DNA of 6,128 nt, from contig NZ_NVQC01000005.1 of NCBI RefSeq assembly GCF_003044035.1, positions 1 to 6,128 on the forward strand, written 5' to 3'. Position numbers and translations under genes: made by a program. Below the pieces are notes generated by a model. It saw only the letters and a program-made list of their open reading frames with translations, had not been told where the DNA came from and ran no database searches. The DNA is from Candidatus Methylomirabilis limnetica (GTDB lineage Bacteria; Methylomirabilota; Methylomirabilia; Methylomirabilales; Methylomirabilaceae). Below are positions 1 through 6,128 of the stretch, piece by piece (the stretch's first letter is position 1; the number at the start of each line of letters is the position of its first letter).

Positions 1-16
1 ATCTATACTCCTGACG

Positions 17-127
17 AAACCCCTCCGCAATCCTTCGTAACCGGTAAATCCTGTTGCTGTTGCTTTTTCCCCACCTTCAGATATGATCCTTAATCAAACC
101 GGGCAAATTATGTGCCGGACGGTATTG
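17..127. repeat. Left arm of a perfect inverted repeat of at least 111 bp (partner 6018-6128)
   Basis: The reverse complement of 6018-6128, checked block by block, equals 17-127 with no mismatch. Pairing stops at 128/6017. The right arm runs into the window edge, so the true length is unknown. The inner end coincides with the first base of core copy 1 (127-137). Confidence 0.95.
60..87 (+). promoter_or_regulatory. Candidate sigma70-type promoter inside the inverted repeat, facing inward (mirror copy on the minus strand at 6058-6085)
   Basis: TTGCTT (60-65), 16-nt spacer, TATGAT (82-87): 3/6 and 5/6 matches to TTGACA/TATAAT. Sequence match only, no other support. Confidence 0.2.
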
Positions 128-416
128 GGACAGACACTATTTATCGTGACGATTCGTGGTGTGTACGGTCATGATCGTGCATGCCACGAATTACCCGAAC
201 CGTTGCATCCGGCCACCCGTATCATGCGAGACAACAAGGGAATGATCGCCAGGCGGTCTTTCGGAACGACAGCGATTCGAATGCGCACGATGACAGAGCG
301 GCCACTGCGAAGAGACGGGATCATCTGGGGGGGGGGTGCGCAGGACACTGGACGAGTAATACACGTGTCGCAGAGGGGAAGACCAAGAAGGGAAGTCAAT
401 AAATAGTGTCTGTCCC
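127..416 (+). mobile_element. Non-coding MITE-like element A (290 bp) bounded by inverted copies of the 11-nt core
   Basis: 127-144 GGGACAGACACTATTTAT is the exact reverse complement of 399-416 (18-bp perfect terminal inverted repeat). The body aligns to 2624-2908 with about 35 mismatches and 5 gap positions (hand alignment). The ORF open in A (83..406) is broken in copy B by a 1-nt indel and an in-frame TGA, so the conservation is not protein-coding. Confidence 0.75.
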
Positions 417-2130: not shown

Positions 2131-2196
2131 ATCGTGACCGCGAACAGCACGAATTGTCACGATAATAGTGTCTGTCCCTATTTTACCTATTTTATG
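2131..2196 (-). repeat. Inverted copy of the element left-end module (hairpin + core copy 3 + tandem TATTTTAYN units) without an A/B-type body
   Basis: Perfect 8-bp hairpin ATCGTGAC (2131-2138) / GTCACGAT (2156-2163) with a 17-nt loop, then AATA, then GTGTCTGTCCC (2168-2178), then TATTTTACC TATTTTATG (2179-2196). The reverse complement matches 127-175 of element A. Similarity to A/B is lost beyond the hairpin. Confidence 0.8.
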
Positions 2197-2198
2197 TC

Positions 2199-2238
2199 TA
2201 AGAAGGGATGTCAATAAATAGTGTCTGTCCCTATTTAC
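2199..2238 (+). repeat. Solo copy of the element right end (core copy 4)
   Basis: 2199-2238 matches 384-423 (the right end of element A plus its first TATTTAC unit) at 38 of 40 positions. Core at 2221-2231. No element body precedes it. Confidence 0.85.
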
Positions 2239-2603: not shown

Positions 2604-2935
2604 TTAAATAAAAATAGAAAATAGGGACAGGCACTATCATCGTGACGATTCGTGATGCTTGCGGTCATGATCGTGCCTGTTACAGATTACCAGAACCGTT
2701 GCACCCGGCCACCCGTATCGTGTGACGGAACGAGGGAGTGATCGCCAGGCGGTCTTTCGGAACGACAACGATTCGAAAGCGGACGATGACAGAGCGGCCG
2801 ATGCAAAGAGACGGGTTCATCTGGGAGGTGCGCAGGACACTGGACGAGTCATACACGTGTGGCAGAGGGGAAGGCCAAGAAAGGATCTCAATAAATAGTG
2901 TCCGTCCCTATATCACCCCTATATCACCTATATCA
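2604..2935 (+). mobile_element. Non-coding MITE-like element B with both AT-rich flanks (core to core 2624-2908)
   Basis: The left flank 2604-2623 reads outward as TATTTTC TATTTTTA TTTAA. Then come core GGGACAGGCAC (2624-2634), hairpin 2639-2671, a body about 85% identical to A, core GTGTCCGTCCC (2898-2908), and TATATCACCCC TATATCACC TATATCA (2909-2935). Confidence 0.75.
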
Positions 2936-3051: not shown

Positions 3052-3269
3052 ATGGGCGACCGGCTCTTAAGCGCGCAGGAGGTGGCGGCTCGGCTCAACC
3101 TGAAGGTGTGCACAGTGATGACTTGGTGGCGAAGGGCGACCTGTCAGCCCTCCGCTTTAGGAGAAAGCTCCGGATTCGGCCTGGCGCGGTGGATGCCTTG
3201 GTGACGGCGCGAGAACAGCCCGTGGCTGAGCACGGCGTTCAGAATCGGGTTTTTCTGCAGCCTCGTTAG
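3052..3269 (+). pseudogene. Excisionase/MerR-like HTH (HTH_17-type) DNA-binding protein, frameshifted
   Basis: AGGAG (3039-3043) lies 8 nt before ATG 3052. Frame 1 gives MGDRLLSAQEVAARLNLKVCTV, then nonsense to TGA 3202-3204. The -1 frame from about 3120 gives DLVAKGDLSALRFRRKLRIRPGAVDALV... to TAG 3267-3269. Joined together they match the excisionase-type pattern LLt..EvA..L.v...Tv..lv..G.L.a.r.gr..ri. This implies a 1-nt loss near 3118-3119, or a sequencing error. Confidence 0.6.
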
Positions 3270-3298
3270 GCATTCTTACGATTCTCTCATTTTAAATA

Positions 3299-3337
3299 GT
3301 TGCTGTCCCTATTATTCACTATTATTCTATTATTCAA
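3299..3337 (+). repeat. Degenerate solo end: core copy 7 (GTTGCTGTCCC) plus three tandem TATTATTC units
   Basis: Core variant at 3299-3309 (GT swapped to TG at positions 3-4), preceded by TTTTAAATA as in the right-end flank. It is followed by TATTATTCAC (3310-3319), TATTATTC (3320-3327) and TATTATTCAA (3328-3337). Confidence 0.7.
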
Positions 3338-3425
3338 CGTGTGAACCGATCCCACTTTTGAACGCGCGAGTTCTCGGTCATGGCCCTCTGGGCGGAACCG
3401 CGTGTAACGACACTGGAGTGACCAG

Positions 3426-4965: not shown

Positions 4966-5178
4966 CTAACCGGTAAGGGGGTTGTGCTTCGCCAGGATCG
5001 GCTCCCGATAGCGCTGGAAGCCGTTACGCCAAATCTCCCAGAGGCGCTGATTCTTGAAGGTCCCTTCGGAATAGGCAGCCTCGGGGAGGCCAATTGCCCC
5101 GCTGACCTCCCCTGTTAGCATGATGGCACAGACGCTCACATTGCACCCGAACCATTGGCCGTAATGTCGCGCAGCGGC
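4966..5178 (-). pseudogene. Decayed radical-SAM SPASM-domain fragment (copy 2)
   Basis: The open frame reads ...GQWFGCNVSVCAIMLTGEVSGAIGLPEAAYSEGTFKNQRLWEIWRNGFQRYREPILAKHNPLTG*. It keeps the C-x10-G-x4 spacing of the SPASM motif, but Ala replaces the closing Cys. It also lacks the CX2CX5CX3C block. No radical-SAM core lies upstream. Confidence 0.5.
4993..5076. repeat. 84-bp direct repeat, copy 1 (partner 5357-5440)
   Basis: 77 of 84 positions are identical to 5357-5440 by hand alignment, at an offset of 364 bp. It encodes the shared QRL.EIWRNGFQRYREPIL segment of the two SPASM fragments on the minus strand. Confidence 0.9.
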
Positions 5179-5243: not shown

Positions 5244-5572
5244 GCGTTTCCTCCTCCTTCCCAGGGTCGTTTCAGACAGTGACGATCGCCCACGCGCATT
5301 CCGAACTTCCCACCACCGCAGGTAGGGGGGTAGTAGCAGACGCTACACTCCTCGGTCAGGATCGGTTCCCGATAGCGCTGGAAGCCGTTACGCCAAATCT
5401 CCCTGAGGCGCTGATCCTTGATGGGCCCTTCGAAATCGGCCACAGCATACCACGTCAAGTCGGTCAGATCAACCCAGCGAGGGGCCCTCACGTCTTCCGG
5501 CTTGTCTGTTCCGTTGTGCCCCAGGTTATCGGCATTGGGGATCATGCGATCTCCCGGCGTCAAGTCTTCCAC
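5240..5572 (-). pseudogene. Radical-SAM SPASM-domain C-terminal fragment (copy 1, 110 aa ORF)
   Basis: The fragment ...DQRLREIWRNGFQRYREPILTEECSVCYYPPTCGGGK carries CX2CX5CX3 with Lys in place of the final Cys. The N-terminal 50 aa are unlike a radical-SAM core. A stop codon lies immediately upstream of GTG 5572. An alternative ATG at 5545 has GGGAG 5 nt upstream. Confidence 0.5.
5357..5440. repeat. 84-bp direct repeat, copy 2 (partner 4993-5076)
   Basis: See 4993-5076. Confidence 0.9.
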
Positions 5573-5990: not shown

Positions 5991-6018
5991 AAAATTAAAA
6001 TAAAATAGGGACAGACAC
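5991..6018 (+). repeat. Left-end-type module truncated at the core: AT-rich flank + core copy 8
   Basis: AAAATTAAAATAAAATA (5991-6007) reads outward as TATTTTA TTTTAA TTTT. It is followed by GGGACAGACAC (6008-6018), which is joined directly to the inverted repeat instead of to the hairpin flank. Confidence 0.8.
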
Positions 6019-6128
6019 AATACCGTCCGGCACATAATTTGCCCGGTTTGATTAAGGATCATATCTGAAGGTGGGGAAAAAGCAACAGCAACAGGATTTA
6101 CCGGTTACGAAGGATTGCGGAGGGGTTT
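6018..6128. repeat. Right arm of the perfect inverted repeat (partner 17-127), truncated by the window edge
   Basis: See 17-127. Confidence 0.95.

Follow-up and report, generated by a model that had tools for sequence, protein, structure and literature searches.

Transposons of the IS200/IS605 group, among them IS608 and ISDra2, carry similar subterminal hairpins at both ends and have no terminal inverted repeats, and their transposase TnpA recognises these hairpins on the top strand of the lagging-strand template. They insert 3' of a fixed tetra- or pentanucleotide and duplicate no target sequence. Single-strand transposons of the IS608 type have one strand biased to the G-rich strand. For IS10 and IS50, fold-back inhibition of transposase translation in read-through transcripts is known.

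The family of TIR-associated tyrosine transposases (TIRYT) owes its name to inverted-repeat tips that take the place of hairpin structures (PMC3733652, PMC6006769). A TIRtron consists of a TIRYT gene lying between inverted repeats with the TIR motif GGGGWSAS (Di Nocera et al. 2013, PMC3733652), and TIRYT members have mostly been placed in TnpA-REP subclass 2.1, whose C-terminal HTH-like extension belongs to Bac_DnaA_C, HTH_23 or HTH_28 (Quentin et al. 2018, PMC6006769). A further point of comparison is provided by the REPIN/RAYT systems (Bertels and Rainey 2011, PMC3116915; Nunvar et al. 2010, PMC2817692).

The hairpin lies in an internally deleted TIRtron

The window analysed in this study is an entire 6128-bp contig (C28) of the 2.55-Mb Candidatus Methylomirabilis assembly (genome label G000). 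The original prediction described a hairpin with an 8-bp stem and a 17-nt loop at 143-175 and 2639-2671 and, inverted, at 2131-2163, and both the sequence and a pattern search confirmed all three copies. The stem, ATCGTGAC / GTCATGAT, includes one G-T pair in the first two copies and, as had been noticed, a Watson-Crick G-C pair at that position in the inverted third; it begins 4-5 nt beyond the 11-nt core of the element tip (GGGACAGACAC), again as predicted. Genome-wide, the pattern search for the hairpin gave 44 matches, with a loop of 17 nt in 39 of them; at least 3 of the 44 lie outside the repeat and are due to chance. The features of the window are the following.

1-126, plus strand: right end of an IS4-like DDE element, abutting the tip core at 127-137, which is its 11-bp target duplication
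127-416, plus strand: MITE copy 1, a gutted TIRtron, with the 11-nt core at 127-137 and its inverse at 406-416; the terminal inverted repeat extends to about 17-19 nt
143-175, plus strand: reported hairpin (helix A), stem 143-150 / 168-175, loop 151-167
146-151, plus strand: putative weakened -35 box, TTGACA at this place in gene copies; overlaps stem positions 4-8 and the first loop base
151-192, plus strand: competing hairpin (helix B), 151-169 pairing with 174-192; 19 bp including 5-6 G-T/G-U pairs; encloses the ATG at 181-183
169-174, plus strand: putative weakened -10 box in the 17-nt register (168-175 region), within the 3' stem arm
181-183, plus strand: former transposase start codon, 5-6 nt past the -10 box, in a leaderless layout
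417-445, 2179-2199, 2909-2937 and 3313-3345: tandem duplications at tips
2131-2178, minus strand: solo left-end MITE fragment, with the hairpin at 2131-2163 (G-C for G-T) and the tip core at 2168-2178
2200-2231, plus strand: solo right-end MITE fragment, tip core at 2221-2231
2624-2908, plus strand: MITE copy 2, hairpin at 2639-2671
3240-3312: variant tip
6019-6128, minus strand: right end of a second, inverted copy of the IS4-like element, adjoined by the tip core at 6008-6018

The hairpin forms the left subterminal part of a MITE of about 296 bp, of which this genome contains approximately 40 copies and seven other Methylomirabilis genomes contain further copies. Identity to the window copy is about 86-92%, the inverted tips measure 17-19 nt, and ATA/TAT adjoins the tips in the flanks. 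A relaxed search with the tip 17-mer (up to 3 mismatches) yielded 107 matches, about 40 of them in MITEs. As the three hairpins of the window are members of this one repeat family, their agreement reflects common descent and not independent recurrence. The tree of the copies is star-like, and some copies occupy orthologous sites in different species, which together indicate that the burst of amplification is old. Empty insertion sites, sought in relatives to define the tips and the target duplication, were not found, the flanks lying in variable regions or in truncated genes; a scan of the window against Rfam returned nothing relevant.

The source of this repeat is a transposase gene. A full-length 750-bp element with the same tips, located at G000:C1:75370-76118, encodes a 225-aa protein (gene at 75388-76062, minus strand), and a tblastn comparison of the full-length TIRYT protein with MITE copy 1 placed residues 1-49 on positions 181-327 and residues 184-225 on 275-403. 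By descent, the MITE is a TIRtron (a TIRYT gene between inverted-repeat tips) with an internal deletion that spared the N- and C-terminal coding ends. The 225-aa protein matches Pfam Y1_Tnp with 63.2 bits (cut-off 23); it scores 75.3 bits with the NCBIfam RAYT model NF047646, under the curated cut-off of 80, and 26.1 bits with the IS200 equivalog model NF033573, for which the cut-off is 55. Residues H60 and H62 of the HxH motif and Y119 are invariant in a 10-sequence alignment of the transposase, and the nearest solved structure is that of TnpA-REP, 4ER8. An extension of about 75 aa at the C-terminus is conserved, and the Pfam HTH families gave no match at E values up to 1. Judged by these similarities, the element belongs to a class that is already known, TIRYT/TIRtron with a predicted RAYT-like Y1/HUH transposase. 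The original prediction had proposed looking for Y1/HUH genes linked to full-length copies, and a Y1_Tnp gene is what lies between the same tips in the 750-bp elements. Its suggestion of an HUH enzyme holds for the element, with its Y1_Tnp domain, HxH motif and catalytic tyrosine, but not for the hairpin as a folded recognition structure.

One intact 225-aa gene is present in this genome, and intact copies occur in four other genomes, apparently at conserved loci. Five full-length copies are flanked on both sides by tips with GGGACAGA or GGGGACAG. The family is widespread: of the first 600 pattern matches in a species-level genome set, 584 were confirmed as relatives. In most loci listed from other phyla a tip lies approximately 50-62 nt before the ATG.

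The resemblance to described TIRtrons comprises the Y1/HUH gene, the GGGGWSAS inverted repeats at a fixed distance and the occurrence of tips as moderately abundant repeats, whether single, paired or clustered. Two differences stand out: the abundant repeat in this genome is the 296-bp shell of the gene and not the bare tip, and Pfam detects no C-terminal HTH. With the REPIN/RAYT systems (PMC3116915, PMC2817692) the element shares a single-copy, vertically inherited Y1 gene at orthologous loci and many non-autonomous derivatives; unlike them, it has no GTAG-tagged REP hairpin, and its non-autonomous derivative is a gene with an internal deletion, whereas a REPIN combines two inverted REPs around a short spacer. 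The possibility that the tips themselves are REP-like hairpins was ruled out, as GTAG is absent and the mean self-complementarity in the family corresponds to a z of -0.16.

Promoter-like motifs coincide with the hairpin

At the stretch occupied by the hairpin, gene copies carry TTGACA-18 nt-AATGAT with a TG extension, which amounts to 10 of 12 promoter matches; read in the 17-nt register, the downstream hexamer is TAATGA, followed by the ATG 5-6 nt further on. We extended the comparison to 90 loci of the TIRYT family from many phyla (L022-L145). A promoter-like match scoring at least 8.5 was present in 57 of the 90 loci, compared with 20.3 +/- 4.1 in shuffled sequences. Within these 57 loci, the spacer is 17 nt in 37, the distance from the -10 box to the ATG is exactly 6 nt in 31, and the -35 box reads TTGACA, TTGACT or TTGACG in 35. 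The resulting family layout is of the sigma-70 type and lies about 10 nt inside the left tip: a -35 box TTGACA, a 17-nt spacer, a -10 box TAnnnT, some 6 nt and the ATG. Because no Shine-Dalgarno sequence fits into 6 nt, this layout implies a leaderless mRNA. We infer from the conservation of the motif in the family that it is likely to be an active leaderless promoter.

The hairpin overlaps these motifs almost completely. Its 5' arm covers positions 1-5 of the -35 box, its 3' arm covers the -10 box, and the loop corresponds to the spacer minus one base on each side, so that what had been described as an invariant 17-nt loop can be put down to the length constraint usual for promoter spacers. 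The length of 17 is indeed constant, as the original prediction expected, in copies where indels are rare everywhere. MITE copy 1 retains no promoter-like match. In the 18-nt register, MITE copies with A at 151 still show 9 of 12 matches, which indicates that the promoter has been weakened and is not necessarily dead. A search for an intrinsic terminator was negative, with neither a T-run nor a match.

The promoter layout, the flank duplications described below and the orientation bias are mentioned in neither PMC3733652 nor PMC6006769; the word "promoter" is used 0 times in the latter, and the former declines promoter analysis. The promoter reading and the leaderless layout, both drawn from sequence comparison, appear to be new.

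The stem lacks conservation, compensation and stability

Outside the MITEs, the stem is not a conserved feature. Gene copies from three genomes pair at 6 of the 8 stem positions in the same register (ATCTTGAC / GTAATGAT), this genome's own gene copy pairs at 3 of 8, and 23 loci of other clades average 3.13 of 8 pairs, compared with 3.27 after the arms had been exchanged at random between loci (p 0.85). Two stem substitutions separate the MITE from the 6/8 gene copies: T to G at position 1 of the -35 box and A to C at position 2 of the -10 box. The first of these, at 146, creates the G-T pair. The derived G at 146 occurs in 49 of 50 MITE copies and the derived C at 170 in 47 of 49; the G-T pair itself is found in 49 of the 50 aligned full-length copies. 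Since the family consensus has T and A at these positions, the MITE state is derived, and the change weakened the promoter and completed the palindrome. That nearly all copies have both derived bases in common indicates that they arose once, in the founder.

The behaviour of the stem after amplification points in the same direction. Stem columns are 93-95% conserved, compared with about 92% for the whole element, and stem breaks fall on terminal branches of the copy tree. When covariation was examined, as the original prediction had proposed, the stem changes in 50-58 copies proved to be mostly uncompensated transitions; the single compensated pair belongs to one copy, which is assembled at both ends of C40. 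After one old burst with a star-like tree, a lack of covariation is weak evidence when taken alone. The expectation that only one strand would tolerate wobble pairs was not borne out either, with 11 cells carrying changes tolerated on the top strand only and 20 carrying changes tolerated on the bottom strand only. Stem disruption without compensation and wobble changes on both strands are the outcomes that the prediction itself had listed as speaking against it. Folding of helix A is weak in comparison with dinucleotide shuffles (-4.3 kcal/mol as DNA, z -0.55; -9.9 kcal/mol as RNA, z -0.96), 32% of shuffled versions of the 296-nt element contain a stem of equal quality (loop 3-30 nt), and nothing comparable folds at the right end (z -0.25 to -1.6).

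In our judgement, the hairpin is probably the remnant of a promoter, a lineage-specific by-product, and most likely no DNA-folding signal. A sigma-70-type promoter between the left tip and the transposase ATG would have supplied both arms as its -35 and -10 boxes and the loop as its spacer; the founder's T-to-G and A-to-C substitutions would then have weakened this promoter while completing the 8-bp stem, and all MITE copies would have inherited the founder state and decayed neutrally thereafter. We infer that the hairpin as such plays no part in mobilisation. If it descends from a promoter, the hairpin itself is of little importance, and the main gain is a sharper picture of the barely studied TIRYT elements, which appear to carry a fixed leaderless promoter and whose gutted copies can persist at orthologous sites across species.

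A competing helix on the top strand

Helix A shares its bases with helix B, which, owing to its 5-6 G-T/G-U pairs, forms only on the top strand. The three ATCGTG-like hexamers at 143-148, 152-158 and 174-179, which the earlier reading of the sequence had pointed out and which are present, are the arms of these two mutually exclusive helices. As RNA, positions 121-200 fold with -32.7 kcal/mol (z -3.85), a value matched by 1 of 200 shuffles. The minimum free energy structure contains helix B in 46 of 50 copies when folded as RNA and in 22 of 50 when folded as DNA, and helix A in 1 of 50 and 12 of 50, respectively. Across the copies, 88% of helix B cells are paired on the top strand, the mean fold z over all MITE copies is -1.8, and the gene copies have a weaker version of 8-9 bp (z -1.2 to -1.7).

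These values raise the main alternative, namely that a top-strand structure at the left end, chiefly helix B, was selected, the reported hairpin being its alternative conformer. According to the folding analysis, helix B as RNA could mask the start codon in read-through transcripts or stabilise transcripts that contain the MITE. Its top-strand specificity with 5-6 G-U pairs, the enclosed start codon, the RNA fold z of -3.85, its place in the minimum free energy structure of 46 of 50 copies and the weaker version in the gene copies all favour such a role. The layout also resembles that of IS10 and IS50 in having an upstream segment, missing from the native transcript, that is complementary to the region around the start codon; fold-back inhibition requires the 5' arm of helix B to be absent from the native transcript, as it would be if that transcript were leaderless. 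Helix B differs from the structures in those elements by being clade-specific and strongest in copies that have lost the coding capacity for the protein. Against such a role stand the lack of conservation of helix B in 23 other clades, the absence from the MITE of any gene to protect and a mean z over copies of only -1.8. In addition, its 3' arm is limited by codons 2-4 of the conserved N-terminus, so that the complementarity may be partly fortuitous. We therefore regard selection for this structure as unlikely. A start-codon fold-back common to the whole family was ruled out, since folding of the 23 loci from other clades gave a mean z of -0.16 for the top strand and -0.18 for the bottom strand.

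Some of the changes that distinguish the MITE bear on both helices: both MITE-specific stem substitutions restore pairing, and others, at 158, 167, 177 and 179, extend helix B. Such changes could mean selection for the founder's top-strand structure, in a comparison that is partly circular because the helices were defined from the MITE sequence.

Strand orientation and possible recognition by the transposase

The orientation of the MITEs was compared with local strand composition. On large contigs, the top strand lies on the locally G-rich strand in 27 of 33 copies, or in 28 of 33 with 50-kb windows; after copies were collapsed to clusters, the values were 15 of 21 (p 0.08) and 16 of 21 (p 0.03). 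Loci in other genomes were concordant in orientation in 10 of 10 cases, about half of them orthologous to loci already counted. Long ORFs are co-oriented with the G-rich strand in 70% of cases, and the MITEs follow the orientation of their neighbours only loosely, so that gene orientation alone predicts about 54% concordance and does not explain the bias. The bias is suggestive: it fits insertion into the lagging-strand template, and it suggests a single-stranded DNA substrate, on which top-strand hairpins containing G-T pairs could form. The single-strand mechanism that the original prediction had raised finds suggestive support in this bias for the element, but not for the hairpin. To our knowledge, there has been no earlier hint that tip-bearing Y1 elements move via single-stranded DNA at replication forks; should the bias hold in complete genomes, it would be the first. 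As an observation it is new, though still suggestive, and it is absent from PMC3733652 and PMC6006769.

Against this background, the hairpin at 143-175 might be a subterminal single-stranded DNA recognition hairpin of the Y1/HUH transposase, comparable to the left-end hairpin of IS200/IS605 elements or to a REP bound by TnpA-REP, that would place cleavage at the nearby tip. The cognate enzyme is of the Y1/HUH type with TnpA-REP (4ER8) as its nearest solved relative, the stem stands 16 nt from the tip in an IS608-like geometry, the G-T pair makes it specific to the top strand, that strand tends toward the G-rich strand and hence the lagging-strand template, and the amplified MITE founder had a perfect stem whereas the gene copies have not. 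Set against these points, the right end has no partner hairpin, the stem is not conserved across a family that is named for its inverted-repeat tips (PMC3733652, PMC6006769), and at least four other repeat families, which have no hairpin, terminate in tips of this type. Moreover, stem changes lack compensation, wobble changes occur on both strands, and the weak fold is out-competed by helix B. The comparison with the IS200/IS605 group leads to the same view: the Y1/HUH enzyme, a strand-specific G-T stem near one end and the suggestive replication-linked orientation bias are shared, but the element described here has 17-19-bp inverted tips, a hairpin at one end only and a stem unconserved among its relatives. 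We consider recognition of this hairpin improbable, and the view of it as a folded recognition structure finds no support, the stem being unconserved, the other end having no comparable hairpin and the constant loop being explained by the spacer.

A narrower version would confine such a function to the founder, which might have evolved a subterminal fold on the top strand (helix A alternating with 151-192) that, on the lagging-strand template, aided the Y1 transposase in finding or orienting the left end. If this were true, the element would be a hybrid of inverted-repeat tips and an IS200-like hairpin, and this would account for the amplification of the shell but not of the gene. We give this version, too, little credence. 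The further suggestion that a tyrosine recombinase (integron integrase or XerCD) uses the hairpin with its core as an attC-like or dif-like site on folded DNA is hardly credible. Sites of this kind are bottom-strand folds with extrahelical bases and have a linked tyrosine recombinase, and the general layout is all that speaks for the suggestion: numerous tips in the same orientation, interspersed with small accessory genes (in the window and at G000:C33:126-138 kb). A scan of nine ORFs of the window against Pfam detected no recombinase, the tips represent inverted repeats belonging to a Y1 transposase gene, and the repeat between them is a gutted copy of that gene.

Variant tips and flank duplications

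A variant tip (core of the GGGACAGCGAC type, followed by TATT) terminates at least four other repeat families, none of which has the hairpin; it is found at 3240-3312 in the window, at C3:58429, C20:2101 and C36:166 in G000, and in three other families. One end of a variant-tip family sits directly past a small HTH gene at 3052-3270. These families look like one-ended, tip-terminated cargo units.

Tandem duplications of 7-15 nt straddle the tip, comprising the final 0-6 nt of the inverted repeat and the adjoining flank, at 25 of 61 element tips genome-wide. Random positions carry such a duplication in 2.6% of cases, and the inner side of the tips in 0 of 61. Similar arrays flank TIRYT genes in many phyla.

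IS4-like insertions and other repeats of the window

The long palindromic target that the original prediction derived from 17-142 and 6003-6128 consists of two inverted ends of the IS4-like DDE element inserted in tips. The copy of this element on C35 has a Pfam DDE_Tnp_1 match, its inverted ends are about 27 bp long, and 6 of 7 copies lie in tips. Followed across contig ends, the element abuts the 11-nt core in opposite orientations at its two ends, as expected of an 11-bp target duplication of the core. It is also present at the starts of C10, C13, C22, C25, C31, C35 and C39. A search for it in four related genomes did not find it. That the MITE might derive from this IS4-like element was ruled out, because the element adjoins the core in either orientation and the body of the MITE is a remnant of the Y1 gene. 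The left end of the IS4-like element contains the start of a DUF4338/DruA-like ORF.

A small palindromic repeat, C5-T3-N4-A3-G5, occurs in the window at 1530-1548 and 1607-1625, at the end of C16 and elsewhere in the genome. One IS4-like copy is inserted beside a GGGATTAAGG motif that is related to this palindrome. Finally, an 84-nt direct repeat with 92% identity, at 4993-5076 and 5357-5440 on the minus strand, lies inside two short ORFs with similar C-termini. Neither of these ORFs has a Pfam match, and the two may be duplicated fragments of one small gene.
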